From Perna viridis (taxonomy: Eukaryota), in the NCBI GenBank assembly GCA_037379345.1, contig CM074516.1, forward strand, positions 34,881,626-34,945,625: a stretch of 64,000 nt of DNA. The letters run 5' to 3'. The notes beneath the pieces are model-generated. The model searched no databases, was not told where the DNA came from, and worked only from the letters and a program-made list of their open reading frames with translations. Both the position numbers and the translations under genes were made by a program. The number at the start of each line of letters is the position of its first letter. Within the stretch, counting starts at the first letter, position 1. Of the stretch, positions 157 through 57,300 are shown one piece after another.

Positions 157-363
157 CATTAATCCAAACCGGTCTTTGTGAACCACATCTCCCTGTACCA
201 GTTGGAGAAGTAGCAAGACTGTAGTTTCCCTCAAATCTGTACCACCCCTTGCTATAACTGGTGGACTCACAGCTATGTGAAGTTATTGAGTAACTGTAGT
301 CAGAATGACGAGATTTGTCATACTCTATAGAAGTGTAATTACTACAGGGGTCTGCCTGGGCTT
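157..363 (-). CDS. Exon E70, D8C N-half (D35, partial domain)
   Basis: 207 nt, AG/GT; EAQADPCSNY...RPVWING. Confidence 0.9.
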
Positions 364-6300: not shown

Positions 6301-9300
6301 AAGGTTACAGTATTGTCTAATACTAATTAATGACAGTAAACTAAATACCCCAGTAGCATTAAATCAGAGGAAAACATTGAACAACTTCATACCATTGATC
6401 CAAACAGGACTCTGTGAACCACATCTCCCTGAAGCTGTTGGTGAGGTAGCAAGACTGTAGTTTCCCTCAAATCTGTACCATCTTGAACTGAAGCTCATTG
6501 ATTCACAGCTATGTGAAGTTATTGAGTAACTGTAGTCAGAGTGACGAGATTTGTCATATTCTATAGATGTGTAATTATTACAGGGGTCTGCCTGGGCTTC
6601 TGCAATTAAAAACAATTATTCGTTAATAAAATATATTATCACTTCAATGTTTACTGTAAACTGCTCATAACCATCATTGCTGAATACCTGTTAGTCTTAA
6701 AGTTGTCATGTTAAGCATACTTCTACTCCAATTCAGTTAAGTATACTCTTACTCCTTATCAGCTAACTTGAAACTGTTTAAGTCATATGATAAACATCTT
6801 AAATAAAGAGCAAGTAAGAGATGTGCTGGGAACCCTTAAAGTGGAGATACAGCACATGTCATACAACACTACTCTGTAGAATGTGAGAAAGAATGACAGG
6901 ACCGACAAGATTATCAAAGTATAGCCCAATTCATATAACATTGCAGGGTTAATAAATGAAGGAAATTATAGAAAGCTGAATAATCAATAAAAAAATAAAT
7001 ACTAATTTTAACCATATCATTTTTACTTGCCTGTGCAGTATCGACCACAACCACTAAAATATGGTGTCAGATAGAAGGAGTTGTAACCATGGCAATGCAT
7101 AACATAAACATCCCAGGATTGTTCACAGTTAGAATCATTTCCCACCTTACAGGCTTTCATTACAGCTGTCTCTCCATACTCAGTGGGATAGGTACCTACA
7201 GAGACACAAAATAGTCAGAATCATTTCCCACCTTACAAGCTTTCATCAAAGCTGTCTCTCCATACTCATTGGGAAAGGTACCGTCAGAGAAACAAATTAA
7301 GTTTGAGTCAATCCCCACATTGTAGGCTGTCATCATAATTTGTTTTACCAATAAGCATAATAAGATGATAAAGCTCATATCATAAGGGAAAATTTCATCA
7401 AAATTTAAGGACTCATTAATAATAACTGCCTAACAATTTCAATTTCTATATAAATACATGTACAAGAGCTAAAATTCAATAATAACCCAGAAAATTCTTG
7501 CAAAAGGAAAACTTCTTATTCCATACTCAATTCACGTGAAGGAGAATTACAGATTAATTTAATAATTTCATTCCTCAATAATGCAAAAAAAAAATGTCTG
7601 TTTAGGGTTACATTCCTCCCAAAAATAGGGTAGGTCGGTCGGCATTTGCATTTTATTATTTTTTTTCATTTTATTTTTTCTCGACTAAAATTGAGCCTAT
7701 ATTTGTAAAATAGCATCATGTTTAAGTCATGAAAGTGTATGGTTTTAAGTAGAAAGTTTAATTTTTAACATACACACCTATTAATCATGTCTTTTATTAC
7801 AATACACTTATTTTTTGTAGAAATTTTGAACAAAATACAAGTACACTGTATTTACGCTTGGATTTACGTGATATAAATAAGTCTCCTATTCAAACGCTAT
7901 AGTGACCTGGTTTTTAACGTACTTTCGGTTTTACTGGAAATGATCCGTATTATATTTTGGAGAAAAAATGTATTAGGGTCTGGAGAAAAAATTAGGGTTG
8001 GTCCGGAAACCCGAAACAGACATATTTTTTTGCCCTAAGTATATAACTTACCATCGACCCATATGGGTGACCTTGACCCACACTGCAGTTGAGATGGTGA
8101 CCAAGTCAGCAAGTTTTCACTGGTACCAAATCTATACCATTGTTCCATATCAATATCATTCATGCCCATATAGTAACCATGGTAACTGTCACAGTATTCC
8201 TGTTCTCCAGGTTGGAGAGTATAGTTTACCAGTCTATTAATACTACTGGAGATGTAGTTGTAGGAATGACAGGGAGTTGTCCAACTTCTCTCCCAGGTTG
8301 TGTTCTGTGCTTCTGTAAAAAATGATAAGATTTACAGATGACAACAGTAAAGGCTAATTGAAACATTCATGTAGATATATCATCTCCACCTTTCTTGAGC
8401 ATTTGTTTTCACTACAAAGCAGCATTTCTACAAAATCACTTGAAGATAGTAAGGGCTGTTAAAAGTCTTTGAGTATTTTAGAAATTTTGTTACTGGATAA
8501 TTTAAACAGCTCTCTAGGTAGAAATCTGCCCTATATTATACCAAAGTGTCCTACTTATTTACCACTGAAAACCTTGTGATCTTTTGGACACTGTCTTTTA
8601 TATGTGAATAGCTGTCAATTATGTTGACCATAACCTCTCTATTGTATCATCCACAAGTATGATTGGGTAGCTTGTCCTCTACATTTAAATGATTTACTTG
8701 TTACTGATTGGATAACATTGTTTTTTCAAATTTAAATATTCATACTAATGGGTAAACAAAGGCTATTTTAAGATTTTAATTGAATGTTAGTTAAAAGTTC
8801 TTTTAAAAAAAATTATATGCACATTCATACTTGACATTCTAAAAATGTGTAAATTTTAAGTAATGCTGTGTGTAATAAATGTCTGAGATGGTCCCTAGGT
8901 GTTCACTAATCATTCAATTAATACAACTCACTGAGGCAACTCAAATCATTGCTAAACCATTTTGAGGCATCTCAAATATATTTTCACAGGAAACCAAAGA
9001 CAATAGAAAAAAATGAGATAAATTTCAAAGGATTTCTTTAGAAAATTTAAATGCATAATGGTTTTATATTTAGAAAGACATGTGCATTTTCCCCACTTAA
9101 AGGAAATTGCAAGTTGAAGACATGGCCATTTTGCAAAAGTGTGACAATGAGTAACTTATAGCTCTATTTTAAATTTAAAATTAAATTTAACAATGTATGT
9201 GCATCTAATTCTTTTTAATTGAAGTTTTCAGACTGTTTTGTTTAAGAATATTTCGATGAAATGAACAATACTATCCAATCAGAAATAAGTAAAACACTTA

Positions 9301-12300
9301 AATGTACAGTACAAGCTACCCAAACAAACTGGTGGTTGGTATAATATAGAGGTTAAAGTCATAATAATTGACAATTATAGACCGGTTTGTAGTAAGTTGG
9401 TTAGCATGCCCAATATATACTTCCACGAGGTAGAACTTGGGTAGAACAAAAGAATTTTCCTCGCGGAAGTGTATATAGAGCATGCTCTATGTATGCTCAT
9501 TGACTACCCCAACGTTAGCACAAAAGGGTCTATTCAAACTTCAACTACATTGTCCTTAAAATCACACAGGTGTTCTGTGGTATATAAGTATGAAACATTG
9601 GTATAATGCAGGGCAGATTTATACCTAAAGAGCTATTTAAATTATTCAATAACCTACATAGATTTGTATTGAAATTGGTACTGGTCTATTTCAACAAGCT
9701 GCAAACATACCTTAATTATATCTGCCAAACAATACCATGTGATTTTAGATACATGTAGATGTCAAACATACCTGTACAATATCTGCCACACATTCCATTA
9801 TTATTTATGTACATAATGTTATAGGATCCACATTTCTTGACAGGAACAGTCCAGCTGGAGGAACATGGTGATCCAGAATCAGATCCCTTACAGGCCTTCA
9901 CATATGATATTTCTCCATCAGTTACTGGTAATGATCCTGGAAGGACATATTAGTATTTAAACCACCCTGTGTCAACTCCTATATTCAGTTTAAAGACTGG
10001 CAGCATCTGATTGACTAAAATTTGTGAGAACCAGAAACAAACTTCATTATGATATATAATATCTCAAAGTAGAAACACTTCAAGCAAAAAAGACCCATAT
10101 TGAACATTCATTCTTTTGCAAACTTTCCATTCAACATCAACTGTATTTGAGAATCAATATACAAAACAAGCAATTCAAATGGCTTCACTAGACCACAAAG
10201 TTCATAACTTTTATTGGTCTTTAGAATAAATGTATCTAACCTTTCATCCAGATGGGATCACTAGACCCACACTGTCCATACCCCACTGGACTCATTGCTG
10301 GTCCATAGTCTCCATCAAACCTGTACCATCCTTTGGAGTAGTAATCACAATTAGAACCTCCCCAGTAGTTATAATAGTCCATGTGTCTGGTGGAGTCATA
10401 CTCTATCATGGTGTAGTTATTACATGGGTCCTCTTGTGGTTCTGTATGATGTAAAGTTAAGCAATCAGCAGTATACAATACTTGGATGAAGTATCTTTAG
10501 AAATAATAAATATAGAACAACAGCAATGTAAAACATAAAGCAATCCAAGTCATGTAACATGCCTGCATGACCTTGACCTTTGGACTACAACCTTAAAATT
10601 CAATAAGGTATTAGACTTTTATATTAAGTTAATTCAAAATTCATTCATGGATGTTGATGCTACCCTGTTTAAATGGTGTTAAGGTCAGTTGGAAAACTGT
10701 ACTACATCTCTGTGCTACATCATTAAGAAAAAATCAAGATACTATGACTAGAGGATGGTAAGGGTTATTTTTAGCAACATGTCTGGTCTTTTTATTCTCT
10801 GTTTGATTTTCAATTATCAATTCTTTATATATTTTGTGTTTACATGAAATTAAGTGACTCTGCATTTTTCTTAAAAGAAAAAGCTAATTCTTAAAATTTT
10901 ATTTTTCTCACTGATATATTGACATTGTTTCTTGCACTTCATAGATTTTTATTTTTCATGATATTTTTTGTAGATGTTTATTTCACATGATTCCATTTTA
11001 CAACCCATTTAAGGAATGCTTCTAATTTTTTAACAGGTTATATGAAAAAAAACTGTTACTTTGCAGTATATAAAAAGTGTAAACTGGCCCAAACCAGGTA
11101 ATTTCTTACAACCCATTAGCTTCACCATTAATAAAAAGTATACACTGGCCCAAATTAGGTTATATTTGTATAACCAGCTAAACAACTAAAAACATTCCAT
11201 ATTAAACTAATTTTTAATGGTTGATAGTCCAAATATTGAAAACTGTCCCATAATTTTGACATTATTTTGTTAAGGATTATTTGAATCATGGAGTGCGTCA
11301 AATTGACATTAATAACTTTTAAGTACCAAGCCAGTTTATACAAAATAACCTGGTTTGCTGAAAGAGAAGCCAGCAATCAGAAGGCACTTATCAAATTAAT
11401 TTTTAAACAAATACCTTATATTACCACTTAAAATTCCCTGGATTATACAGAATTCTTACCTGTACAATATTTGCCACAGCCTTGGAAGTATGGTGTCAGA
11501 TGAGCCACATTAAATCCATCACAATGCATGACATAGGTATCCCATTTATGTTCACAGTCGGAATCATTGCCAACCTTGCACACCCTCATGTGTGACATCT
11601 CAGCATATTCTGTGGGATAGGTACCTAGAAGGGAAATTTAACAGAATAATTGCTCATCTCACAAATCCTCATGTTGGACAGTTTAGCATACTCAGGGTAG
11701 GTACAAAATAAAATATTGTAATATGCATGAGGTCGCCTTGTTATTGTTAACGTGATAATATAATCTTAAATTTGGGAATAATTCAGGTTCATTCAAATAT
11801 GCCCCAAGCACAAGTCCAAAAAACACTATTTGTGATGTATATTTTTGGGGTTCTGCGTTAAGAAGAGTCATATTGCATGTGAAAAAACATTACCTATGAA
11901 GAGTACTGACAAGTTTGATTTATTATCCAAATGTCAAATATTGATTATAGTATATTTTTAACCAAGTAGCATGACACCGTTTTCAATGTTTATGAATGAT
12001 GTCATTTCAGGTTTTGACAATGGCATATCATAAGTTTTAAGGTTTAAGATATATGTTCACCTTGATATTGTTTAATGCAAATACTGACTTCTAGAATGAC
12101 AGCAGTTTTGATATTTATTCCGATATTTCAAACCTAAAAATGTTTGGGCCCATGGACTATTTGTAGTGATGTATCTCACCACTTCACATAGCAACAGCGT
12201 TAATGGAAACCCTAGCTGGTTAATTTAAACTTTATAGCACAAGAACAAGATCATGGAAGAGAAGCACAGGGATCGTTAAACAATTAGGCAATAACATCAG

Positions 12301-15300
12301 GGACATATTATGAGCCAAGGTTCCTTTCTTTGCTTATGTGTATGAATAATTTCAAAGGTATAAATACGGAGTAAATTTGCCAAAGATGGCAGATTGCATT
12401 TGGCTTCAGTGCTGTCAACATCATTTGAAATACAAGGAAACAGCCATGGGAGGACTTAATGCTGCAAGAAACCATCATTAATGCAATCTCCCACCACACA
12501 GATACTGTCGTTTGACATTTATTGCATTTTACAATATCATACAATATTTTCTGCCAATATAGGAGCACCACCGGAGGAATTTAATGGGAACCATACTGAG
12601 TGAAATACAAGCATTATTTATGGTGGATAAGAAATAAGAAGGGACTTCAGGATGCATGGTTAATATTTTTAAGGATTGTTTGATGTGGAAAAGGAACTAG
12701 GAACTATTAACTTTAGTTGGTGAATACCAGCGCTGAAAGCTAATTAGTATTATAATAGGACTAGGATGAGGCAACACAACAAGTCACATAAGGTGTACAT
12801 TTTATTAAAGACACAGATACTGCTATCACTAGGGGTCAATATCGTTATATATCCTGCTGAATAGAAAACACATTTATTGTAATAAATTTATCATTCATTT
12901 TTAATTGGTTTGTTCTACATGCAGATTCCTACAGTATACATTGAAACATAATATTTAAAACTGAGAGTCATCTTATCAATCGGACCACTCACCATACCTG
13001 TTACAATATAAAATAGAATCATTCCCCAATAGATTTAGATCTGCTTCATAATCATAGGTTTCAATGCCTGTTAATCAATATACCCATGGTAAAATCAGAA
13101 CATACTTACATACAACAATAACAAAACTTCCTGAATAAAAAAAAATTATTTGAGGGAAAGGTTTATATCTTCTAATTACCGTCAAACCAGATAGGATATA
13201 GGGATCCACAACTCAACTGTTCTGGAGGTCGATTCAGGACATTCTCATAATTCTCAAATCTGTACCAATTATCACTACTGATCTCCCCATTAGAGTAACC
13301 ATAGTAACCATAGTGATACCAATATTCATTGTCACATGATTCATACTCTCCTGATTGAAGGATATGATCTACTGTCCTCTCAAAACTACTGGGTACAACA
13401 TGGTGGTTGTGACAAGGGTAGTCCCATGATGACGAATTGGTTGTATTCCTGGACTCTGTAATTAAGAAAGATGATAAATAGATTATAGTATTATATAACC
13501 TCCCAAGCTTCACTGAGCAGGAAATCAAATACAAGGCCCAAATTACCATAGTGATAATATTCAAAGAAAAAAATTCATTAACCCAATGATAATGCAGCTG
13601 TAACCATATAATAATTGCATTAATGTAGATATCAAATAAAGAAAAAATGTCACTGATGCCTAAAGTTCAACCCCCTAAAGATACATCATCCCTACAAATA
13701 CAATAAAACTGACTTAGCATCCTTGCAGATGTACAAGCAAACCTAGACAGTATAAAATCCCTGCAGATGTACTAAAACCTAGACAGTATATCATCCATGC
13801 AGATGTACTCAAACCTAGACAGTATATCAGCCCTGCAGATATACTCAAACAAACTTAGACAGTATATGATCCCTTCGGACCTAAACAGAATATCATCCTT
13901 GCAGATGTACTTAAACAAACCTAGACAGTATATGATCCCTGCGGACCTAAACAGAATATCATCCCTGCTGATGTACTCAAACCTAGACAGTATATCAGCC
14001 CTGTAGATGTACTCAAACCTAAACAGAATATCATCCTTGCAGATGTACTTAAACAAACTTAGACAGTATATGATCCCTGCGGACCTAAACAGAATATCAT
14101 CCTTGCAGATGTACTTAAACAAACTTAGACAGTATATGATCCCTGCGGACCTAAACAGAATATCATCCTTGCAGATGTACTTAAACAAACCTAGACAGTA
14201 TATGATCCCTGCAGACCTAGACAGCATATCATCCACACAAATATACTCAAACAGACCTAGACAGTATATCATCCACACAGATATACTCAAACAGACTTAG
14301 ACAGTATATCATCACCGCAGACCTAGACAGTATATCATCCACACAGATATACTCAAACAGACCTAGACAGTATATCATCACCGCAGACCTAGACAGTGTA
14401 TCATCCACACAGATATACTCAAACAGACCTAGACAGTATATCATCTCCGCAGACCTAGACAGCATATCATCCACACAAATATACTCAAACAGACCTAGAT
14501 AGTATATCATCACCCCAGACCTAGACAGCATATCATCCACACAGATATACTCAAACAGACCTACACAGTATATCATCCACACAGATATACTCAAACAGAC
14601 CTAGACAGTATATCATCCACACAGATATACTCAAACAAACATATACAGTATATATCATCCCTATAAATATTATAAAACTGACCTAGACAGTATATCATCC
14701 ACACAGATATACTCAAACAAACATATACAGTATATATCATCCCTATAAATATTATAAAACTGACCTAGACAGTATATCATCCACACAGATATACTCAAAC
14801 AAACATATACAGTATATATCATCCCTATTATAAAACTGACCTAGACAGTATGTCCTCTCACACATGTCATCATTACGTAGATACATAATCTCCTCACTAC
14901 CACATTTCATCACTGGTACACTATAACTCCAGGAACAAGGGGAACTATCTGATGAATGACAAGCTCTGAGGTATGAAATTTCTCCATCAATTGTAGGGAG
15001 GCCTCCTGCAAAACAATAAAGTATATCTATGCAGTACTGGCAGCTACTATAGTTAAAGTTTTATAAATTAAAAATTGTGAACTCATATGCAAATTTTTGT
15101 TTTGTGTTTGCCTAATAATGCAGGGGAAATTCAGAATTAGTGAATTTTGAGGGGGGAGATTACTGTACAAGTATCAATTTTTGTAATAATTTTTTTGTAT
15201 TTTCTTGGTGAAGTAATAAGTGTAAATAGTAGTACCTGCCAATTGGATTATTAACACTATGAATTACTTATCATTATTCAAAACTGTGAAAACCGATACC

Positions 15301-18300
15301 TGTGAACATATTCACTAAACAAATCCATGATAAGAAGCAACCAATGAAGTTAATATATGTTTTCTAGTACATGACTTCCTGAAAATATTGAACAACATTC
15401 TATACCTGACATTGAATAGAAATCAGAAATATGTAATATTAATAAGTAAGAGTTACCTTTCAGCCAGAAAGGACTAGATGATCCACATTGTCCTGGACCT
15501 ACAGGAGTTGTGGCTAGTTTATAGTCTCCTTCCATACCATACCAGCCTTTAGGTCTATATGAATGGCAATAATCTGAGCTATAGGGATCATAATTATCTG
15601 CATGTGTTGTGTTGTCATATGGTATCACAGTATAGTTATCACACGGGTCCACAGCCAGCTCTACAATAAGGAGTCTTAATACAATTATCAAAGTTTTAAA
15701 CATTAAGAATCCTAACTACATGACATTGTAAAACATTAACCTATACATTTTATGGAAATCAAATAATCATTAAAAAGGTTATGTAAAGCATGGCATCCAT
15801 TAATCATGTGAACATTTTGTTCTGGGATCTTGACCTTTGACCTTGAACAAAGAGCAGTCACACCTCTCTTCAGAGACCTTCCAAGGGAAACAGGTGGTCT
15901 CCTTACACAGGTTCATAGACCTTTCTACAGAGACCTTTCAAGGGAGACAGTTGGTCTTCTTACACAGGTTAAAAGAACTATCCTCAGAGACCTTCCAAGG
16001 GAGACAGTTGGTCTTCTTACAGAGGTTAATTTTACATAAAAATGCACAACATAATGATACCAAAATTAATAAGGCACAAAACACTGCATTTCTTATATTT
16101 ACAACTGATAACTGTCTTGCCAAAAGAAAAGAACAAACACCTTTAAAAACCTTACCCATACAATAACGTCCACACTCGTTAATATCAGGAGTGAGGTATG
16201 CCACATTAGTGTCGTTACATTTCATGACGTAGACATCCCAGCTGTGTTCACATTCAGATGTATTAGTGTTCATACATGCCTGCATTAAATTCATTTCTCC
16301 GTATGAACTTGGATAGGTACCTAAAACAGTAAAAACATATTTTTTTATATTTTTACTGTAGAAGAAAAATTTAAGTTCTTTTTCTTTGTGGATTTTATGA
16401 GTGCGAAAACAAATCCCACAATACAACATCCCTATAGGAAGATTAATACAAAATATCAGCAACCTGTGAGTGACTCAGAAAAAATGTGACAAAAAGTTTG
16501 TATATTACCACTGTACAAGGAAAATTTAAATTTTTGGCAAACTGGAAATAGATGTCATACGAGTAGGAAAATGCATCCCACAATTCAGTATACACATACA
16601 TGTATAAAGCTTTGTCTGGATTATCAACACTCAGTAATTTACAGAAGCTGAGAATTTTGTTATGAAAAATGTGTTACTGAATGAGGGAATGACAGAATGA
16701 TACAGGTAAAACAGTATACCCCTCTTCCTAGGAAGCTTGGGAAAACAATATCAAACTATACATGTATAAGTGTTAGCACAAGTCTGCATCATCTTAATTT
16801 CTCCATAAGATCTTGAGTAAATACCTATAAAGTTTTCCTTGGATTTCAAAATGTTTGAAGTTTCATTCTGGTATTTGCATAATGTGAAAAAGTTTTGTTA
16901 GGATATGAAACTTTTTCCATGGTTTAAGGGTTTAACTTCTCAAATATTCAATTTCTTATACTGGACCTTTGAAGTTTTCAAATGATTATTAAAGATGACT
17001 CAAGAGTCATCTTGACTTATCTTCAGCTGTTTACTCACCATTGAACCAGATTGGATACCATGATCCGCAATCTCCTGGTTCAACTGACTCAGTCAGAAAA
17101 TTTTCACCATTACTAAATCTATACCATCCTTGTGTAGAAACTGTGTCAGAAGAACTGTAGCCATGGTTACTATCACAGTAGAACCAATCATCATACTGAA
17201 GTGTGTACTTAGAAGATCTCTCAAAACTACTGGGTATTTTTCTATAGTCGCTATACATGTTATCACTGTATCTATAATCATAGCAAGGAGTGTCCCAAGT
17301 CTGAGTCCAAACTGGTTCCTTGGGTTCTGTAAAAATATAATCAATAAATTAAAAAAGGTTTTTTGCTTTTAGGAAATACCTCCCTCTTTTTTAGAAACTA
17401 AGTGTTTACTTTTATAACAAAGACACCCTGTGATTAATAAAATGGCCTTTGAACCCTAAAACTATTTTTGAATGGCCTCATATAAAAAAATTGCTCATTT
17501 ATACTGTTAACAAACTTCTGGAATCTGCATGTCTTGTTTTGTTTTCACTTTCTGTTTACTTTTATATTGCCAGAGTATAGACTATTTTGCTCTGCCTGTG
17601 TACTATGTTGTTTTGCCGCCAGTTGCAGCCAGCCCTGTTGTGTGAGGGTTTCCTTGTCGTTCATTGAAGACCCATAAGTGGCCTTGAGCTGACATTTTTC
17701 ATCCCTGTGGGTTTTTTTTTCTTTAACATATTCACCATATCCACTCTCCTTATATTTATTACATTTTAAGTTAAAAATTAATTTTTGCAATTTTTGCAAA
17801 GACAAAACCCTTGCAAAAAAATCTGAAAACCCTTACCAATCAATGGTTTTAACCACTCGACTACAGGTAGATCTTAAAAAATAAATCTCAGCAAACTTAA
17901 ATTCAATCCTTATAAGACAAAATAGGCATATGTGGTTTACAATAGGAATTAAATACTTAAAGTACCTTAGTATCATAATTCAATACAACAGTACATACCC
18001 AGACAATATCTGCCACACATTCCTCTTTGTTTCAAGTAGAAGATGTCAAAATCTCCACACTTCATCACAGGGACACTCCAGTTATACTGACAAGGATTAG
18101 AACCGGATACTTCACAGGCAAACATATAGTCTATTGTATTCTCCTTGGTTGGGAAGTTTCCTGAAAAATGTATGTTTAGATTGTAATCATTCATGGAGAG
18201 AATGAAAGGATGACTTTTAATTTTCCTTAAGAAGTCTGAAATATTCCTGATGTCCTTGGATATCAATGTGTTCAGATGCCATTTGCCATCATCAGATACA

Positions 18301-21300
18301 ACTGTTACTAACTAGAACTGGTGATATCATTGATTGATACCTCTTACTTGCAAAACACTGACAATTGAAAACTCTGAAGTTGGAGCATCTTCCTTTGCAA
18401 GCATCTGGCAATAATTATCTTACTACATGCACATTTACATAAGACGCCTCAGTCTCTTGTAAAATTTCATGAAAATCTAAAGAATGATTTAGAAATTACA
18501 CTTATAAGTTACCTAGACAGATAACAATTCTTACATATCCTAAAAAAAACTGTTAGCAGGGCATAAAACTATAAACTTTGAGAAAATAAAATAATTTAAG
18601 GAACTTGGGAGCTTGGTTTTCTTTTCTGGATGTATCCAAATGATGGAACAACAGAAAAACAAATTTTAGACAAGTCTTCCCATGTATTTTCAATAGCAAC
18701 TTTAAGTGGTGAAAACCACCAAAGAGGCAACAACAAAAAAAAGCTTTCTGAGTAATCAAAAGACTTAAGTATTTACTATTTTGGATTTAAGTTATACTCT
18801 AGGGTATTTGTCACATTCCCCTGTATCAGTTCTTTTTTACATTGAAGATAGATTAACAGATAGACAGTGGTACACTCTACCTGTCAAAAGATGGGGATAA
18901 AAATACATCAATTCAGAATGCTTTGCATGTCACTATTATATCATGTCCTAACCATTGGTGAAAACAGTCTCTTACAGTTGTAACCTTATGTGACCTTAGG
19001 TCTCAATATATAACTGAAAAATAATTGACTGGAAACACACTGAAGCAAACATACTTAGTACACATGTCATCATCCAGTATGATATCCAATTTAATTCATG
19101 TGACAACAGCCTAACATACCTTTAACTAGATCAAACCATGGTAACTACAATGATTGCCACTCAGAAGTTTGCTTTCTACCCATGATGTAATTAATTACCT
19201 TTCATCCAGATAGGATTGTAGTAGCCACAATGATTTGGACCCAGTGGTTTGTTTTGTGGTCTATAGTCTCCTTCAAACTTATACCATCCATCATTTAACC
19301 AATCACAGCTGTACATGTACATGTAGTCTGTCACATTATCAGCATGTCGACTCTCATCGTAGTCAATAATGGTGAAGTTAGAACATGGATCAATGTCTTG
19401 TTCTAAAATATTAAGAAACAAGTTAATTACTTTTATCCTATGCTTTGCTTCACATCAAATAACATTTATTTTATATCTATTACTTGTTAAACTATGTTCA
19501 AACAATGACACTCCAACAGTATTATAAACAAAAGGTTAGTTACAAGCACTGACATACTTATAACACAATTTCATTCTGTAAGTTTGCATTTTACAGTATT
19601 CATACCTATACAATATCTGCCACAGTCATACTGGTATGGTACAGGTTTTAAATGAGCTACATTAAAATCACCACAATTCATGACAGAAACATTCCAGCTG
19701 TGATAACAGTCAGAATCATTGACCACCATACAGGCTGTCAGGTTAGATAACTCTGCGTACTGCGTAGGATAAACACCATCTGGAATGAAACAGAAATTAG
19801 AGTCAGAATCATTGACAATCATACTAGCTGTCAAGTTAGAAAACTCTCCATACTGAGTAGGATAAACAACACCTGGAATGAAATAAAAATTATACTCAGA
19901 ATCATTGACCACCATTCAGGCTGTTAAGTTAGATAACTCTTTGCACTGGATAGGATATTTACCACCTGGTATAAAATAGAAATAAAAGATAAAATTGTCA
20001 TAGTGGCTAAGTTGTGGAATTTGAATCAGATTGCCTGACACACCTATATCAGCTTTAGCCTTCCATATAAAATCTGAAAGATTTTCCATCAAGCAAAACT
20101 TGGCCTTCCTCCTCCTAAACCCGGTGAATATATTCAACCTTTAAAAATAAGCTAATTTCCCTACAAACACCATGATAAGAAGTATAATCACTATTAGTTT
20201 TTTTTATAGTTTGTTAATGACCCCTGCTGATCCATAAGTCATCGGGTGAGGCAGTATCTTGTACCCTACTGAACAAAAGTGGAGGGGGTCTATTAATTCA
20301 AACAGGAAATGAGTGACACAAATCTCCTAGTCTTCATCATTCTATGGTGAAATTATTTTCATAAAATAAGTTACATAGAATCCACTACACAAGGATGTTT
20401 TAAGAAATGTTACTTCTGAATACAGGTTAAGACATGTTTTACTGTAATGACATTCTACAACCCATGAAAAAACTGAATTTTTTTGTCACAACAAGACTTC
20501 ATCAGTTTAATAATAAGACTGTATTTTTCTTACCATCAAGCCATATTGGAGACATAGTCCCACAGTCTCCAGATTTGACCGGACGTGTGGGAATATCTTC
20601 TCCGCCATTAAATCTGTACCAATCTTCATAGTAAATATCATGATTATCTATATGGTTCCGATTATCACAGTATTGTCTGTCTCCATCCTGTCTGGTGTAG
20701 TTTACACTCCTCTCAAACTGGCTTGATACTACACGATGATTGTGACAAGGTACATCCCATGGGATATCTCCAGGTTCTGTAATTTAAAGATACTACCCAG
20801 TATATTTTTGAACTAGAGAATGTTGATTTGGTGATCAGAGATAACTGTCTATTTCAGTTTTTTTTTATGTGCAAAAGAGTAATTACCCCTAAATGATAAT
20901 TGTACCATACCACAGACCATAACCAAACTTAACTAGTATAATATAGTTCATTGTCTTGTGTTTTTTTTTTCTAATTGCATTGTCTGAAAATAAAAGTGAA
21001 ATGAAGAAATGATGAACACAAAAACAAGATGACCTTCATAAAAAATCTGACTTTTACAAAAATGTCTTAAAGTTTGGGCATGGAAATATCAGTATCTATG
21101 GTTACCTAGACAGTATCGTCCACAGTTGCCTGAGGATTGTAGATAATAAATGTTGTAGTCTCCACATTTCATTGTTGGTATGTCCCAGGTATAGTAACAA
21201 TGTGTATAAGAATACATTGAGTCTGACTCGCAGGCTTTCACATACTTTATCTCTTGATCAACTGTTGGTAGGGTGTCTGGAATAAAAAAAATATACTCAA

Positions 21301-45300: not shown

Positions 45301-48300
45301 GACCAAACTATTTCCAGGTTATGCTCGACCTCAGATGACTCGAACCTTGAATAACTGAAGCATTTTTGCTTGGTCCCTTTAATTTCAACTTAATGAGGTA
45401 TCTGCAACTCATCCCCTGAGGTTTACAATGAATTATGTTATAGGCACCCCTTACCTTGACAATATCTGCCGCACACCCCTGAGGTTTAAAATGCACTATG
45501 TCAAAGGCACCCCTTTCCTTGACAATATCTGCCACACATCACCTGAGGTTTAAGATGCATTATGTTAAAAGCACCCCTTACCTAGACAATATCTGCCACT
45601 CATTCCCTGAGGTTTACAATGCATTATGTTATAGGCACCCCTTACCTTGACAATATCTGCCACACATCCCCTGAGGTTTAAGATGCATTATGTTAAAGGC
45701 ACCCCTTATCTAGACAATATCTGCCACTCATTCCCTGAGGTTTACAATGCATTATGTTATAGGCACCCCTTACCTTGACAATATCTGCCACACATCCCCT
45801 GAGGTTTAAGATGCATGATGTTAAAGGAGCCACATTTCTTTACAGGAACAGTCCAGCTGTAAGAACAGGGGTTTGAGCTTCCACCCTGACAGGCTTTCAT
45901 GTATGTTATCTCTTGGTCTATGCCTGGTAAATGACCTGCAAACAATAAAATAAGAAGATATAATATTAGTAGAAATATAAAAAGTGTCCAAGTCCATACA
46001 GATATTTAGGTCAAAGGCCAATGTGCTGTAAGACCTTATAGATACATAGAACATACACATTTTTTTGCAGAATTTGTAAATAAACTCAAAATCATCAGAA
46101 ATAGATTGATTTTTACTTAAAAAAAATGGCATACAATTAAAAAATAATGTTGCATAAAAGACAATTTTAAAATATTTTAATTATTAATATTGATAGTATT
46201 GATTGCAAAAGTATAAAATATGCTTAAATATATTTTAATCTTGAATTAAAATCCTATTCAATTCCACGCTTTGTTACACCTATCTGATACCAAATTCTCA
46301 TGTTTAGATTCAGTAAACCAGTTTATACTTAGTGAGATTCTAAAGACCATATGGCTAACAGTAATGCAGTACAGGTCATTTTGAAACAGTAATCAAGGGA
46401 ACCAAGGTTTTAGCAGAAATCAGAAGAATGTAATCCAGGGACAAACACCAGACATGAAATATATACATATGTTCCTGACTATACAAGTACCAGCCAAATA
46501 CCTATACAGTATAAGAGTTCATATCATACCTCAGTATATAAACATCAATACAAAATTTTCTACAGTAAAATTGCTATTTTTCTCCTTTTTCATTGTTCGT
46601 CTATTGAGCAGTCCATAGTTTTCAGACTATTGACCGGCAATGTCAACTGCTTTCGTGGATTTTTCGTTCCGTCACCAGATTGGACTAAAGTTCTATGTTT
46701 ATTCGGAACACTGACTTCACCCTCTCTTAATGAAAACCCCGAAATTATCTTGCACTTTAACACAGATGAAGTTGAATGTTTGCTAGACAATATTCAAATG
46801 TGTACATTGTTGCTGTTCTTTATCTTACAGACACCATGTAATTGATGTTGAAGGCTGCAAATTCAAATTCCTATGAATTACTGGTGAAAAGGTCAATGAG
46901 ACAACATTCAGATCAAAATATTGCCAAAAGATGCATGGTTTTCTGGGTTTTAAACATTTTGAGGTGATGAGGGGAAAATATCAGTGACATTCAAATTGAA
47001 AATATTGTAAAAAACGTTTTTCTGGGTTATCATTTTGAGATGATCATTCAACTATGAACAATGGAGGGACATGGAGTAAACGTATTACAAGTCTAATGTT
47101 TTCGGTATAATAAAATACTTAAAGACTGGGTATTCAGGAAATAGGAAGTTTATATTTATATAAATATATCAAATCACACTTCTTCTATAAATAACCTAAA
47201 GGTTACATAAAAACAACCAACAATGATACCAAAATGATTTAATGATTTTAGTACCCTCACCACTGGACAAAATTTTAGGCTGAATGATACTACTACACAA
47301 AAATCCGGAAAACTGGTTGTTATACAGAATAATGGAAGGACAGACTGATGACCAAGAGTGAAACTATATGCCCTGACCACTTCATGGCAAGGGCATAAAA
47401 AAGAAACCAAACTCTCTAAACCTTAACAACACTCCAAGAATTAAAAAAAATTACAACCTTGTAATATATTTTTGAATCCGCTTCTGACTATGAGGCTACA
47501 TCAAAACAACCAGAAGGGAATTTTAAGCTGAATGATAACAGTACACAAAAAAACTTGGATTGAAAGAGTGCAAGTCTTGAGTTTTACCAAAAGGTTCACA
47601 CATTCTTTTAAACAGTTGAATCTTTAAGCATTGATTTATCTTCTGTTACTGTAAACATATCAATATTTTTAGCAATGATTTCAGGTATTCTTCATAACCC
47701 ATAATAGTTGGTCACAAACCTTTCATCCAGATAGGTTCAGATGTACCACACTGTCCATTTCCTACAGGTGTCATGGCTGGTTGGTAATCTCCCTCAAATC
47801 TGTACCATCCATCAGAGTAGGAATACGATTCACAGCCATACCCACCCATGTAATTATAGAAGTCCATGTGTCGGGTGTGGTCATATTCTATCAGGGTATA
47901 GTTATCACATGGATCCTCTGCTGGTTCTAAAAATGCAGCAAGTAAATTAACAATTATAGCAATAAAATTTGGAAAAAAATTACTTATACATGTCTCTTTC
48001 CTTTATGGTCCTACAGACCACTAATTATAAAACTGTTTATAGAGGACAAGTCCACATACAAGTAATCAATAAGAATTTGACCTCTGACCTAAGAAGCAGC
48101 CAGAGCCTGATTTTAGTTTGACAGGAACTGTTACTGTTTCACAGAGTAAGGATCTTTACTAGTGTCATATTTTTTTAACAAAAACAAAATAGTTATCAGT
48201 TTACAACTCACATCTTAAAGGTTTGTAAATTTATGAAGAAAAATAAATTCTAGTTGATGTAAAACTGTAAAAGGCATAATTATTCATAAAAATATCAGTA

Positions 48301-51300
48301 TATTCAACTTTGTCATCTTACAGATTAGATCTGCATCATATTACTATAGTATTTTTTTCTATATGAGAATAGAATATGAGTTCTAATTAACACAGATGTT
48401 ATATAATTTGTTTCAGAAAGAGTGTTATGTGGAATATCAAACTCTCTCATTAGAATTATCAAGATATTCAACATAATGTATTTACTATCAAATTCCTATG
48501 TAGAAATTATTCCAAGGGTGATATAGGAAAATCATAACTGGAGAAATGTTGAATACTGCCATAAATATCAATGCTGAAAATAGAAGAAATGATGTGTCCA
48601 CAGGACATAGATGCCCCAGCCATCACTAAAAATTCAAGGAATATCAACAGGAGGTAGATGCGGCAATGAGCTCACCCACAACACAATTAATCATACTGAA
48701 GCTTTAGAACAAATCTGAGAACTTTGAAAGTTTTTGCAAAACTGAACCTAATAGCTTACATATTGAACAATGATGCACACCAAATCCTCAACCATTCACA
48801 GGAAAGGTTTCTCAGTTTTATGGGATGAAAATTTTTGAAATCCTTATATACAGCAACAAAAAAACTTACAGCAAACAAAAACTTGATGTATCCATCACTG
48901 AGCTTAAAAAGTTTACCAACTCTACAACCCATTAAGCTGAAGCAATAAACCAAATCCAAATCATTTCCACGAAGAGCTGCCAATTTTCATGCAACAAAAG
49001 TTATGGGGAAAAACTGACAAGTCAGGGATATAAAAAAACCCATTACAGTTATTTTTGGAAATGAAAAACTAACCAGTTCAAAGCATTGTATTTATACATC
49101 AATAAACAGAAAAACATGAACCCAAATATTTCTGAATTTACTGTCCACTTTTTCTAAGAATACTCACTAGTACAATATTTGCCACAGGGTTCATAATAAT
49201 CTAAGAATCTGAGTTGAGCCACATTATAATCCCCACAATTCATTACAGGCACTGACCAGGTTTCATTACAGTTAGTATCATTTCCAACCATACAGGCTGT
49301 CAAGTTATACTTCTCTGCATACTCAGTGGGGTACTGACCTGGAATAGTTAAATATATCCATTATTATAGTAACTACATGCACTCCATCAAGATGCCACCC
49401 ACAATACTATTTAATACTCAATATCCAGGCATTTTTGTTCCAATGATGTAAGAATGTTACCTTCAATATATTAGAAATAATGAATAGCTTTGCCAAGAGC
49501 AGCATAGTACAACTGCAGCATATTGAACTCTGTTCATTTGGGGAAAGTGTCAATACAAATTAAGTTTTGACACACAGAAACATAGTGACTTACAGTTCAT
49601 TATGGACACAAAAACTGGTTTGGACAAAATACTGCACAAAATGTGAACTTCAATTAAGGAGGTAGACCAAGGGTAAGAAACATAACTCTTGAAATCAGCG
49701 ATATATTTGTATAATATTCAATTTCACCAAGGCCTGTCAAGCTTTCATGTGAAAAAGAATGAAATCTGTCCATGTTACTTTGATGCTTACAGGAGACTGA
49801 TATAAAATGCTGAATACAAACATTCCAATGATTTGAAAGAGTTGTGTCCCTTACCATAGATCTACATCCTTAAGTTGAAAGAAATTCTGCTTTATGGGTG
49901 TTCATCAAAGTCCTTTGCTTTCAATCCCTATAATTTTGAAAACTGTAAGAAATATCTGAAATCTCACCGAAAAAACACAGGCAGGGATTTTCATAAGGAA
50001 TCTAATGACCAATATTAAAAATTTTCAAAATCAGACCAAAAACAAAAAACTTTATTTTTTGGGTGAATCCCACCCCCACTCTGACAACTTACTACCATAA
50101 GAGACAACTGAAATTTGAATGAAAAATGCAGGCAGAGATTTTCATGAGTCATCTAATATCTAAATTTTAACTAAATCAGACCTCAAATAAAAAAGTTGAT
50201 TTTTTGGGATACAGCCTGTATTGTACCCTTACAACTTTGAAACTGTAAAAGATACGACTATTCTATAAGAAAAAACTCTTATAACAGAATTTCAAAAAGA
50301 ATTACATTGTCGACAGAATAATAAAGAAAACAATAAACTATTTCTAGCCATTCTAATTAAAACACATATTTCTCCTTTAACCCCTTATTTTCAAAGGAGA
50401 TAAGGCAAAAGGCTAAAAATAACTATCTGTCCCTCCTCCATGTCCCTAGGAACAATGTATATAAATTTCAAAAACAGTTGATAAGTTTTACTCAAGTTAT
50501 CATAAAAAGACACAGATGACAAAGATGTCCTTAAAATTTCTCTATGTTGTATAAAAAGATCAAATTCATTTCTATACAGTTTTCTTTATAGTCCAATGAA
50601 CAGATCTGATATAAGACCCATGACTATTCCTTAATTTTGTGTTACATACAACAAGAAATTTCATAATCAATGTTACTTAGTTACAAACTGACTGGGGCAA
50701 TTATAAGATTTGCATACTGTAAACTCAAGCATGACAGCCGAGAGATGTATGTCAGGATAATTACTTAACTTATATTTTTGTTGTAGCTATATAAATAATG
50801 GTTTATTTTCCTTTCCATTCTGAAGAAGCCTTAGGCATAAATTGATACCTCATAAAGAACACAAGACGGGAATAATCAAGGTGTCTAATATATACATGTA
50901 TATATCTTCACAACAGCTCGATAAACTTGGTAGTTTATTGCTCTGTGGTGTCGAAGTCAGGGTCCTTGTTCTTGGTAAGTATACTTCTGTATGAATTAAG
51001 AATCATCCACCCCTTACCTCTTTCTCATCAGATATATAAAATGAAACATAAGTGCTATGATACCTATTTATTAACTACAAACTATCAAATCATTTATGTA
51101 CATTAGAATAACTTGGGACTACAAGCTGCATAAACTAATAAAAACCAAACAAGAGATACCCCCTTTTTCCATGAACTAACCAATCAAAGATCAAAACTTG
51201 AGGGATGAGATAAAAATGGGTATGAAAATATACACTTTTTATTGAGAAAGTCCAAAGTTATAGAGAATAATATAAGAAAATCATAAAAATAAGTAGAAAT

Positions 51301-54300
51301 ATGAATTGATTAATAATTTCTCATGACTGCTCTTCGTTGTCAACAACGTAATCAATTTGAACTTTGAATAAAGCAAATAAAAATATTCGAAAAGAGGTTC
51401 AAGTAGAGAAAAAACCATACGTTTGCAATGTAGGAATTAAAGATAACTCTTACATTATAACTATTACATTATCATACGTCAGTATGGGAAAAGAAAATCC
51501 ATATGTCGGCATGGTAAGAATTGAAAAAAACCCATGCTTCAGCATGATTAGAGAAATCATACGTTAGTATGGTAAGAATTAAAAATAACTCATACGTCAG
51601 CATGAGTAGAGAAAAAACACCGTGCGTAAGCATGATTAGAATTAAAAGTAAACCCATGGGTCAGAATGAGTAGAGATAGAGTAATCAAGGGAACCAAGGT
51701 TATAGCGGTAATCAAAAGAATGAAATCCAGGGACAAAGACCAGACATGGAAAACAGACATACACAACAAAGAACATAAAGTAACTAAAATCATACACACA
51801 AAGTAACAAAAGCAAATGAGCAACTCGGAAACCATATGTTAGCATGGTAAGAATTTAAATTAACTCATACATCAGCATGAGTAGAGAAACCATACATTAG
51901 CATGGTAAGAATTAAAATTAACTCATACATCAGAATGAGTAGCGAAACCTATTGAAAGCCTGATTAAATATCTACTTTTTCACTGCCATGAGATGAAAAT
52001 TCTGTATGTAAGTATGTAAAAAATAAGTTATAATACTACAAAAATATAAAACAAAAATCAAAATACTAGAAATTATATAAAACAAGAATCACATTTAACT
52101 TCAAGTACTAAATACACAAAATTAAGAAGCTATAAGTACTAAATACACAATATTAAGAAAATATATGTACTAAAATCACAATACTAATTAATCTCCAGAG
52201 GCATTAACAACTAAGAAGAGAAGTGGGGATGGTGGTGGTTTTTTCTATCTCAATAAACCAAAGCTTGAATATTGATCTGACTGCCCTAATTATCAAATCG
52301 AAAAAGAGGCTAACATGTGCAAAAAGAGGCTGTTTGAGGTTCTTGTAAGGGGGTTTATCTTAGATCCAATACAAGTAAAGCTGCTTAATAGTAAATAAAT
52401 TGATATTCCTTTACTAGGTAATATGCTCAATTAAAATAAACTACAATTATTATAGTTGAGAAGTTATGGTCCAATACTGAAAATATCACAGTCATTGATA
52501 AAAAATGAACCACATACTGGACTCTATGTCAGCAGCAGCACATCCAATATAGGGTTTAAAGTGCAATTTAGAATCATTCAATATTATCATTTATTGTACA
52601 GAAACTTGTATAAGGGCTAATATATTAAAACATATGAGGTACACAAAGCAATTTTAAATTTATACATAGGTTGTTGTGAAAACTGTTGATATATAGACTT
52701 AGCTTAACATTGCTGCTATGAGTGAGTTCACTGGAGAAAGACCTTATATTTAAGGAGTGACTGTTATATTTTTTCAGTCAATAAGGAAATAACCTCAACC
52801 ACGTGGTGCACAATAAATGACCTGCGTAGCAGGTTATTTTCAAGTGTGCACCATGGGCATAGAGGTTATTTGAAACAGACCGAAAAAATATACCAGTCAT
52901 TTCTTATAATTTAATGTTAGTATCTAAATATATGGAGTAAATCAGCAAAAATGGTTGATGACATCACCATGCAGCCATATTGGTCTCCATGACCCAGACT
53001 GTCTAGGTTCTGGTGGTGATGTTAGAATGTCACCATCACTAAATCAGACACCAAGACAGATAAAATTTAATACATATACTCACCATCAAGCCATATTGGT
53101 CTCCATGATCCACACCATCTAGGTTCTGGTGGTGATGTCAGAATGTCACCATCACTAAATCAGACACCAAGACAGATAAAATTGAATACATATACTCACC
53201 ATCAAGCCATATTGGTCTCCATGATCCACATTGTCTAGGTTCTGGTGGTGATGTTAGAATTTCACCATCACTAAATCTAAACCAGTTATCACTAGACATG
53301 CTGTTATAAAGATAGTTCATGTTCCATTGTCTGTCACATTGTTCCATGTCACTATTCTGTAGGGTATAGTTTATACTTCGTTCAAATCCACCCTTCAGAA
53401 TATGGTGATGATGACAGGGTACATCCCATGGGATATTACCTTCCTCTGAAATGTATAATGTATTGAGTAAAGATGACAAATATTATAAAGTTTGAGCAGG
53501 AGATATCTCCATATAAGGGTACACAATTATGTAGGAAAGAAATGATAAAACACATCAATATTAATTATAAAATGATAATGGCAGCTAGAATCAGTAGACA
53601 GGTCATTACAGATATATCTCAGGTCAAGCTGACTTACCTAGACAGCATCAACCACAAATCACAGAGGACTGTAGGTAAAATGCATGGTAATCAGGAAAAG
53701 TCATTAGAGATAGTACTGACCAAACATCCCTGAGAACTGTAGGTAAAACACATGATAATTGGGACAGGACATTAGAAATACATCTCAGGCCATGCTGACT
53801 TACCTAGACAGTACCGTCCACACATCCCTGAGGACTGTAGGTAGAATACATGATAATCAGGACAGGTCATCACGGGTATATCCCAGCTGTAGGTGCAGTA
53901 TGTACCATAATGCATAGAGTCTGCTTCACAAGCTTTAACATGATGTAACTGGCCCATGGTTGTTGGGTAGGTGTCTACAAGATAATGTAATGTAATTTAG
54001 TACATGTACAATTACTTTACATTAAAATTTAATTAGCTTGTTTGATGATTTTACCCCATGTTTTCACTACATAATAATTACTTTTCCTTCAATCTGTTAA
54101 TTTTGATTTTTTTTATTTTGATTTTAAATTTGTTTCATGCATATCTCAATAACTATATACAATTTTAACTATGACATCCAACTTAAAAGAACTGTTTCAG
54201 CTACAATCAATTATTGTTTTGTATTTTCAAATTTTTGTACAAGCTTCATTAACACTGATGCTTAAACTGTGACCTAAATGAAAATGTTTAATATGCAATT

Positions 54301-57300
54301 TTTATATTAGGTTCTGTGTGTCCCAAACATGTTTTAATTGACCTGACCTGATTAAATTAACTGATTATTATATATCTTAATTTTCTGCCATTGATAGTTA
54401 AACATGACAAAAATAAAACAAATAAAGAAATTGTCCAAGTTACATGAATCAGGACCAACACCACAACATTATAAACCAAATAACACTGACCATTAATCCA
54501 TACAGTAGAGTATGAGCCACACTGTTCATAATCTGTTGGTTTAGTGGCTAGTTTGTACTCTCCCTCAAATCTATACCACCCTGACTTCATGTTCGTTGAT
54601 TCGCAGTTAGATGTTGTAACCGTATGGTTGTAATCAGAATGACGAGATTTATCATACTCTATACTAGTGTAGTTATAACATGGATCTTCTTGGAATTCTA
54701 GAAATTTACAACAATGTTATCAATTACAAGGTCAGACTTTATGTGTTAATATTGGTACATTCCATTTAAAGATAAAACAAGACTGTGGTTAAAAGACTAA
54801 AACCAATACAGACGCTTGCCCAGCAGGTGTCAAATATACCATACATACATTGAAAGGATTTCAAATCAAAGGTTGATTAACTCTGATAAACAGTTAGTCA
54901 TGTTAGTATTGTAACAGTAGTACTCTTTCACCTCAATTGGTAGAGGTATGACCAAGAGGGTAGCTATAGATACAAACCTACCAACACTATTTGTGAATCT
55001 TGCACACTGCATGGTACTTACTCTCAGTTGGCATCAAAGTAAAGAACAAACTGTATTACTATGGTCAAAATGCTTATTTTTGGCTTTCAAGGTAAATGGA
55101 CATATAGCTTCATAGGTAGATTTAAACATTATGCTTCATCAACTGTTCTAGAGGAGTACTCCTTTAGCTGGGGTGATGGAGCATCAGCAAACAACAATGG
55201 TTCATATGTTTAGCTAGATAATAAACCTTATACCGTCTGTACTGTTACAGAATATACCTGTACAATATCTTCCACACCCTTCAAATGGAGATTTAAGATA
55301 AAAAGTGTTGTAACCATGGCAATGCATAACATAAATATCCCAGGATTGTTCACAGTTAGAATCATTCCCCACCTTACAGGCTTTCATCACTGCTGTCTCT
55401 CCATACTCAGTGGGATAGGTACCTACAGAGACACAAAATAAAGTTAGAATCATTTCCCACCTTACAAGCTTTCATCAAAGCTGTCTCTCCATACTCAGTG
55501 GGAAAGGTACCTGTAAAAAGAGAGTATTGTAGATGTACATATTGATGGAATAGAGAATATGGACATTATACAATTATCTTAAGGTATGAAATATCCCAGA
55601 AATACTGAGCTCTGCATACTGGACAGTCAAGAAATATCATTAAGGAGAAAAAACTATAAAAAGAAACTCCTAACGAATGAAAAAAGAGCAAAATATATCA
55701 AATTTAACAAAACACCAATTAAGTGTGCAAAAGTAGATAGGATTGAATGAAAATCAGGAAGGAAATGGCACAACTTACTGATCCAACCAATAATGTGACA
55801 ATAGTAAATCCTACCTTGAGCCCATATGGGATACCATGTTCTACACATTCTCTGCTCTGATGGCCATGTTGGAATGTTTTCATTATTACTGAATCTGTAC
55901 CATTGTTCCATGTCTATGTAATTCATGCTAGAGTAGTAACCATGGTAACCATCACATCTCTCTTGTTCTTCTGGCCTCATTGTGTAGTTAACCAGTCTGT
56001 CAAACTCACTGTTTAATGTGTTGTAGGAATAACATGGAGAATCCCAAAACCTGTCCCATGTGGTGTTAAGTGCCTCTGTCAAAATGTGAAATCATATAAA
56101 GAATTACATAAGAATCTTACACTTTAAACTGTAAGGTCAACAATAGACTTGTTTTTTTAACTTAATTTGACAGGTCTCATTCTTTTGTGACTTTGACATT
56201 ATGTTTGATTAAGTATGAATATGATAATATTAAAACTGGTATGGCTTCAGAACATTAGGAAAAGTACAGTGTTCAATAAATGAAGTTAAAGTCAAATGTT
56301 AAAATTCCTGTAATAAGTCAGCAGGCCAGTTTTATATCCACAACATTAACTCTGTAACTCACCAAGATACACTTATATATCAAATATCAGCACTAGCATA
56401 AATTATTTCGGTAAGATGTCATTTATTAAAAATAAAATCAACTTGCAAAGAGGAACAAGATGTAAATTGTCGGTATATAACCATTTTAAAACAGTCACTG
56501 AAACAAAAGCAGCTCATTTCATGCAAGTGATAAAAAGATGTCCATAAAACTGGACAAACATATGATAACTAATGACAAAATGATGAACAATATTAAAATC
56601 ATAGCAAACTTTTTGGTAAATAATAAACCCAATACCTAGACAATATCTGCCACACATCCCCTTCGGTTTGAGATACATTATATCAAAGGATCCACATTTC
56701 ATCACAGGAACTGTCCAGTTGTAGACACAGGGTGATAAATTTGATCCCTGACAGGCTGTCATATAAGATATCTCTCTGTCAGTCTCTGGCAAATGTCCTG
56801 ATAAAATAGGTGGCATTTAAAAAATCCTAGCATTTTCTTAAATGACATTTAATTAAATATCATTATGTGTAAATTTCGATTGCAATTTTGAGCATTGTTT
56901 TTATTGTCCCTATGGACTGAAGATTATTTTTTCTATGCAGTAGAGTGAGAGTAGAAATAATCAACAGAAACTAAAAAACTACATCATTGTCTATGTTGAC
57001 ATTAAAAACAGAGCAATATACAAATTTGCATTCAGCTATTTCACCAACTCAACAGTTTGAGAGACCATGTCATTCCAACATGAATTTACTCTAATTTTAA
57101 TCTTGAAAAAGAATGTAAGGCAATGATGCTGGTGGTTTGTTAATTCATTGACTTCTTTTAATAGTCTCACAAGAATGTTGAGTCAAACAATATACTAATA
57201 GGATAATGAATTGGTAAGAGTGAATAATCAAAATATTATCACAAGAGCTTAAGAAAACCTAGATTTAATAAGTATGTGGAACATGTTCCAAGCACAAGTT

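Follow-up and report, generated by a model that had tools for sequence, protein, structure and literature searches.

Mirage-type tandem duplications at splice sites of a giant VWDE-type gene in Perna viridis

The present study concerns a stretch of 64,000 nucleotides (nt) of Perna viridis DNA (assembly GCA_037379345.1, contig CM074516.1, positions 34,881,626 to 34,945,625; hereafter the window), which lies within a 723-Mb genome of 46 contigs. It is spanned on the minus strand by a giant, repeat-rich surface-protein gene of VWDE type (157..63744) that runs past both window ends and has 70 of its 96 phase-1 exons (E) in the window, these alternating between the N-half and the C-half of a cysteine-rich, GP2/uromodulin-like decoy module. 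Upstream of several C-half exons that encode NDS(N/D), the intron holds tandem copies of the acceptor and the exon start, here called echoes. We consider it probable that the echoes are mirage-type tandem duplications of a sort that also occurs at splice sites of unrelated genes, and that those at the NDS exons go back to two or three origins, one of which spread between exons as an acceptor cassette with a likely exon-derived branch point. All features described below are on the minus strand, and coordinates are those of the window.

Acceptor echoes at the NDS exons and their splicing

Eight acceptor echoes had been listed in an initial annotation of the window, and all of them were found near the positions given there, with the same exon numbers. 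Seven had alignment scores of 78–123 against maxima of 21–29 for shuffled sequences, and the echo of E57 scored 35 against a shuffled maximum of 28. The units measure 80–93 nt, made up of 64–72 nt of exon start and 17–23 nt of intron end, and they occur in one to three copies, i.e. as head-to-tail units spanning the exon-intron boundary in the manner of mirages. E13 (55423..55529) has a 69-nt exon copy (55442–55510) joined to a 19-nt linker, E21 (43310..43590) three units of 87–88 nt (exon copies 43329–43571), E33 (32158..32257) one unit of 82 nt (exon copy 32176–32239), E45 (22291..22568) three units of 85–88 nt (exon copies 22308–22551), and E49 (19780..19986) two units of 93 nt (exon copies 19801–19965). 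At E57 (11625..11704) there is one decayed unit (exon copy 11644–11704) whose decoy AG is lost. The echo of E37 (27994..28147; exon copy 28011–28079), which has lost its decoy AG and has a decayed outer unit, is matched by that of E61 (7196..7349; exon copy 7213–7281), again with a decayed outer unit; the two lie in a 4.1-kb duplicate (4229–8319 vs 25025–29119) of 99.2% identity.

As the initial annotation had proposed, the echoes have a common break point, since in each of the eight the break lies inside the AATGATTC(T) codons or directly behind them. A ninth echo with this break point, which that annotation had missed, was found at E81, outside the window. Thus 9 of the 15 AATGATTC exons have an echo breaking at those codons, against none of the 33 other C-half exons. 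The sister exons E5, E25, E69 and E77 are without echo; what looked like decayed echoes in E69 and E77 was discounted, the scores (28 and 34.5) being within the control range of 20–40. The E33 echo is not an assembly artefact, because it is spanned, with three differences and one gap, by a contig of another DNA run in which its structure is the same. While copy number varies from one to three among the paralogs, length variants of the echoes were absent from the rows listed for three DNA runs. Near position 20000, beside the E49 array, a DNA contig of one run has 186 letters before 20000 that do not align, possibly a structural polymorphism.

The fate of the acceptor copies was read from contigs of five runs (X11, X12, X13, X16 and X17), which were taken as transcript-like on account of GT-AG or GC-AG joints that are missing from the DNA runs. 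At all four echoes tested (E33, E37, E45 and E49) the exon-proximal AG was used, bearing out the proposal that the upstream acceptor copies are left as decoys. The joints 19779/20534 (E48–E49) and 22290/22862 (E44–E45) were present in two of these runs, and 32157/32967 (E32–E33, shorter side 113 nt) and 27993/28852 (E36–E37, shorter side 26 nt) in three; none of the four was present in the DNA runs. It should be underlined that close paralogs can align at 92–93% likeness, and that the E37 contigs are indistinguishable from E61. Among the joints listed for the five runs none led to a decoy AG; they skip every unit, and no new intron or exon has formed between the copies. The depth over the echo bins was close to that predicted from the exon share alone, both for E49 (7.27/8.18 vs 7.3/8.2) and for E33 (5.7/6.5/9.1 vs 6.0/6.8/9.5). 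At four of the eight echoes the contigs thus show the terminal unit to be authentic and normal splicing to be kept, as is typical of mirages.

Origins, probable spread and likely branch point

The initial annotation regarded the echoes as recurrent, independent events at each exon. This did not hold, as five of the eight trace to one event and two or three origins were counted overall. The used acceptors of E13, E21, E37 and E45 (family A) have the same junction and agree with each other at 13–15 of 15 positions, while exons outside the family agree with them at 4–9 positions, except for E69 (11–12). The introns upstream of the family A arrays gave no mutual alignment. Two substitutions are common to the E13 and E37/E61 echoes and were found in none of 10 related exons aligned (FastTree support 0.96); one of them also occurs in the third echo of E21, which is in turn the best match of the decayed outer unit of E37. 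From the shared junction, linker and derived sites, together with the 99.2% identical duplicate, we conclude that the echoes of E13, E21, E37, E45 and E61 represent one event, and the pattern makes it likely that this cassette was spread by duplication and conversion. The outer echo has 93% identity to the exon in both of E13 and E45, and the outer acceptor agrees with the linker at 7 of 17 and 6 of 15 positions, respectively, which is no better than unrelated acceptors. The cassette would accordingly seem to have entered these two exons by recombination through its exon-like part, demoting the native acceptor.

The echoes of E49 and E81 are 80–89% identical to the best exon of their own family as against 52–65% to other exons, and they have a linker of their own; they therefore represent a second origin, whose break falls on the nucleotide homologous to that of family A. 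The echoes of E33 and E57 are a probable third origin, the 3' end of the former resembling family A. Hence the possibility that the initial annotation had itself named as fatal to its proposal, that all echoes derive from one event spread by conversion, applies to five of the eight, not to E49 and probably not to E33 and E57. Two derived non-synonymous sites (KMSN vs KVGN) are common to the E33 exon (31993–32157) and the echo of E57, which suggests that echo copies and coding exons exchange sequence.

With regard to the branch point, among 494 control acceptors the A of TRAY motifs is most frequent at −21 to −25 (139 vs about 66 per 5-nt bin), and YTRAY is enriched in the ordinary acceptors of the array gene (31/80 vs 23%). 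CTAAC or CTGAC near the used AG, said to be present in most cases, was found in six of the eight echoes (E13, E21, E37, E45, E49 and E61) with its A at −20 to −24. The candidate branch A is at 55444 in E13 (CTAAC, −22), 43331 in E21, 28013 in E37 (CTGAC) and 22310 in E45, and the CTGAC of E49 has its A at 19803 (−24). In E33 there is no CTRAC and the motif is ATGAT, with its A at 32179 (−22), and E57 has only ATTAT at −23. Stated more broadly, an exon-derived TRAY is present at −20 to −24 in seven of the eight used acceptors, the exception being E57 with TTAT. The nearest upstream AG is 28–44 nt away from these eight acceptors, and the first AG after a branch point usually serves as the acceptor, so the branch point is likely to lie in the exon-derived sequence. 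With the 19-nt linker of family A, only breaks at exon nt 67–79 would yield an exon-derived YTRAY, and the observed break is at nt 69. The three origins in the array gene taken alone gave P = 0.034 for exon-derived TRAY in a post hoc test, and one dynein echo repeats the pattern independently, with CTGAC at −21.

The background rate was estimated from 20 dynein and 20 myosin loci, where 362 of 1071 candidates were removed as repeat-like before counting; in a preliminary screen 4 of 16 matches had been judged false by eye. Echoes were found at 6 of 618 acceptors (about 1%) and 19 of 596 donors (about 3%), whereas shuffled pairings gave none at 595 acceptors and 569 donors. The same test applied to the repeat array gave echoes at 12 acceptors and 7 donors out of 95 each, which amounts to a modest excess over the controls (P = 0.03) when the array is counted as four acceptor origins. 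In the dynein and myosin loci Tandem Repeats Finder reported 13 donor-spanning and 3 acceptor-spanning arrays, where the intron-interior density leads one to expect about 2.3 per side; the roughly 6-fold donor excess has P = 1e-6, or 0.001 with the expectation doubled, and there is no such excess at acceptors. Since echoes also occur at donors and in unrelated genes, the process is general, and it can act without NDS codons and without a branch motif. In these loci the frequency of echoes at donors was about 3-fold that at acceptors (P = 0.008), a difference to which easier detection of conserved exon copies may contribute. The intron part of the 12 independent acceptor echoes, a small sample, was 14–29 nt throughout, and that of the donor echoes ranged from about 2 to 74 nt, with one doubtful match at 154.

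Taken together, we envisage the following course of events. Local duplications spanning splice sites occur throughout the genome, at about the rates given above. A copied unit with only 17–21 nt of intron would leave the original branch point upstream, and such a copy would do least harm where the exonic end of its unit provided a TRAY about 20–25 nt from the AG, with no further AG in the interval, a stretch that the NDS(N/D) codons could supply in these exons. As the unit begins with about 69 nt that look like an exon, misaligned recombination with the start of a paralogous exon could move junction, linker and AG together, and the receiving exon's own acceptor (E13, E45) would become a decoy. 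Block duplication would account for the remaining copies (E37/E61) and unequal exchange for the differences in copy number, the decoys being tolerated by-products while splicing goes to the proximal AG, as shown for four exons.

Alternative explanations

Several points weigh against this reading. The initial annotation's proposal of an exonic CTAAC/CTGAC as branch point fits in position and in the AG-free zone, but CTRAC is not the usual motif of this organism, being found at background level (2/80) in the ordinary acceptors of the array gene. E49 and E81 also hold an intron-derived TAAT (CTAAT at E49) at −18. Only 204 of the 494 ordinary acceptors have TRAY at −18 to −28, so that TRAY is not required; six of seven further control acceptor echoes are without it in this interval, and among eight short-linker origins an exon-derived TRAY was present in four as against 1.9 expected (P = 0.085). 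Given so small an excess and a dispensable motif, selection for a branch motif would be a soft filter. Furthermore, the RNA nature of the spliced-contig runs is a guess from their joints, contigs lose rare forms so that rare use of decoys could escape, the prediction of control exons was based on splice-site matrices and on matches to paralogs rather than on RNA, and conversion was read from a sequence pattern in one assembly. Finally, the breaks of family A and family C fall on one homologous nucleotide, the linkers of the two being unrelated, which the filter alone explains poorly, and two origins among the 15 AATGATTC exons exceed a 1–2% background with P of about 0.01–0.035 (0.0004–0.003 with three origins).

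The last two observations would be better accommodated by the mechanism of the initial annotation, in which the NDS codons mimic the branch zone of the intron and microhomology repeatedly steers slippage to them, rebuilding a branch point each time. The restriction of these breaks to AATGATTC exons points in the same direction, and the NDSN string ranks among the 2.5% of exon 13-mers that most resemble a branch zone; about 10% of ordinary acceptors share at least 6 nt with it at the right distance, compared with a median of 5.8% for random exon 19-mers. This excess is less than 2-fold, however, and 12–15% of random exon strings do equally well. The NDSD strings of families B and C reach only the 53rd and 84th percentile, whereas the NDTN string scores higher (99th) and yet none of the six NDT exons, which belong to few lineages, has an echo. 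TRACT at −19 to −25 occurs in only 1 of 80 ordinary acceptors of the gene, and no pre-duplication acceptor was identified among those compared in it; the E69 acceptor resembles the linker over the last 15 nt, and the overlap it offers is at most about 3 nt. Three clean donor echoes of the control loci overlap by about 1–3 nt at the junction, as read by eye. With no surviving pre-duplication acceptor, and with echoes at donors and in unrelated genes, microhomology-driven slippage was not supported, and we regard it as unlikely. Apparent microhomology at two control echoes (D12 and L014) was discounted, since their outer flank has the look of an earlier echo that has decayed.

A broader version would make splice junctions in general hotspots of duplication, donors about 6-fold relative to the intron-interior expectation, with conserved codons of glycosylation sequons that mimic the branch zone seeding the acceptor break and becoming the branch point, and with a portable cassette that invades paralogous exons, replaces their 3' splice sites and trades coding variants. 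We put this forward tentatively, as a doubtful reading; if true, it would mean that protein constraint shapes intron signals.

It appears very improbable that one ancient echo, present in the ancestor of all NDS exons, was homogenised with each exon and lost in E1, E5, E25, E69, E77 and E85. All nine NDS echoes do fall within one well-supported half of the exon tree, and the likeness of the E33 echo 3' end to family A and the exchange between the E33 exon and the E57 echo would suit such a history. Against it, linkers compared across families A, B and C agree at 5–9 of 15 positions, no better than acceptors of no relation do, the echoes are closest to exons of their own subfamily, and many losses would be required.

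Still harder to credit is that the decoys are functional alternative acceptors, serving nonsense-mediated decay or adding residues at E49. If used, 12 of 13 outer units would give a premature stop, by frameshift or in frame; the sole open one, the inner E49 decoy (19780–19872), keeps the frame without a stop and would lengthen the product by 31 residues, and 9 of the 13 outer units examined keep their AG. Use of the inner E49 decoy was not seen among the joints listed, which reach the proximal AG in all five spliced-contig runs, and its counterpart at E81 contains a stop. The decoy AG is lost at E37, E61, E57 and one E21 unit, and the presence of echoes among sister exons is patchy. No function is thus indicated for the decoys. 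Reverse transcription of a lariat intermediate, suggested by the 14–29-nt intron parts, was rejected because it leaves the donor echoes unexplained and because the unit of three older acceptor echoes (E23, E39 and E63, see below) includes the branch motif.

Known mirages, other echoes and the host gene

The echoes are a variant of the mirages known from amphioxus, which are described in the available portions of PMC3087553 and PMC3902484 for Adh3, the globins BflGb6 and BflGb9, troponin C and PGBD5, with the mechanism stated as unclear in PMC3087553. Shared features, as far as these portions go, are the head-to-tail copies across exon-intron boundaries at both 5' and 3' exon ends, units of tens to about 160 nt, the retention of AG or GT in many though not in every copy, normal splicing of the authentic unit, and concerted evolution within arrays. 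In contrast to what is described there, the present genome is non-chordate and its background rate has been measured, the unit lacks the length to carry the old branch point and hence has an exon-derived candidate motif, and one junction is common to several paralogous exons. A likeness is also seen to the 37-bp variable number tandem repeat in human F7 intron 7, of which the consulted part of PMC1557585 reports that the first unit spans the exon-intron boundary and that the pseudo-sites are silent while the site beside the exon is used; that case differs in being on the donor side, with no branch point involved, and at a single locus. As to the wider background, mirages were reportedly first described by Canestro et al. 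in 2002, as citing papers have it. Intron gain by tandem duplication of proto-splice sites, said to go back to Rogers (1989) and Gao and Lynch (2009), likewise multiplies splice signals by internal duplication, but here an existing acceptor is replaced or multiplied and no intron or exon is formed. The literature covered, for the most part at listing level and outside subscription journals, describes neither a branch point derived from the exon in repeats of this sort, nor echo spread between paralogous exons, nor mollusc mirages.

Mirages have previously been described gene by gene in amphioxus, and the present locus adds a background rate within one genome. Its sister exons with and without echo form a natural series for the choice among tandem acceptors and for branch-point position. 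There are also signs that recombination between paralogous exons replaces acceptors wholesale, which would explain how intron 3' ends turn over while the exons of a repeat gene homogenise. In practice, echoes mislead gene prediction and read mapping.

Older acceptor echoes, likewise missed in the initial annotation, were found at E23 (41386..41475), a non-NDS exon where an intron-derived TAAT is kept at −22, at E39 (26733..26818), of shared origin with E23, and at E63 (5935..6020), the duplicate of E39; they break near exon nt 92 and keep about 28 nt of intron. About 440 nt upstream of the E53 acceptor there is a decayed copy of the start of that exon (16761–16815; score 43 vs 28). Donor-side echoes, also missed in that annotation, are present at E2 (approximately 63019..63148), E15 (approximately 53639..53803), E16 (52964..53199, 116-nt period), E19 (45399..45773, about six copies with a 64-nt period), E35 (29818..29948), E43 (23375..23846, a decayed echo followed by a 50-nt array), E55 (13738..14840, grown into a 1.1-kb compound array), E59 (9702..9771), E72 and E75, so that acceptor and donor boundaries are both affected in the array gene, as in mirages. 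The decayed donor echoes of E35 and E59 fit an E19-type exon end better than their own exon ends, the E19 type being the best match for E35. As judged from such likeness, a donor-side cassette may be common to several paralogs too.

When the flanks are included, the array comprises 96 exons (E-8 to E87) in one stop-free frame of 6,408 amino acids, making up 48 tandem decoy modules with identical intron positions, each module being interrupted by an intron. The profile of the N-half exons matched human GP2 at residues 33–94 (E-value 8.5e-6) and that of the C-half exons the adjoining residues 98–150 (E-value 0.007), from which it follows that one exon pair equals one GP2/uromodulin-type decoy module; the D10C/D8C module expected of a VWDE-type protein is thereby present. 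Single half-exons gave no Pfam match (0/8), no array exon was among the matches listed in a PF23283 profile search of the genome, and one N-half exon, when searched for homologues among longer proteins, gave nothing at E ≤ 0.001. The array is followed, about 10 kb downstream and on its own strand, by a VWD domain (PF00094, E-value 5e-7, above cut-off), and also downstream are a Ser/Thr-rich frame, a hydrophobic segment and weak EGF-like matches below cut-off (E-values 0.0035 and 0.032). VWDE is listed among D10C carriers in the part of PMC8930769 consulted, and we call the gene VWDE-type, its array and downstream tail being putatively joined on the basis of position and strand. The module is like that of VWDE, GP2 and uromodulin; the GP2 chains matched carry one copy, and here there are 48 in tandem. 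In 24 of the 48 N-halves a PC-x-N-x-S/T sequon occupies the place of GP2 N65, which PMC8930769, in the part consulted, gives as the FimH-binding glycan site. By analogy, the array could possibly act as a multivalent decoy for bacterial adhesins.

The two copies of the 4.1-kb segment, alike with introns included, lie 20.8 kb apart and may reflect a very recent conversion or duplication, or possibly an assembly error. A paralogous gene on the same contig (22.04–22.07 Mb) has 13 similar modules in near-identical triplet blocks, with no echo at its 52 boundaries. Three introns of the array gene are of the GC-AG type, with the donors of E37 (27829), E61 (7031) and E79 (outside the window), and the E37-type GC donor joint was seen in two of the three spliced-contig runs that show E36–E37.

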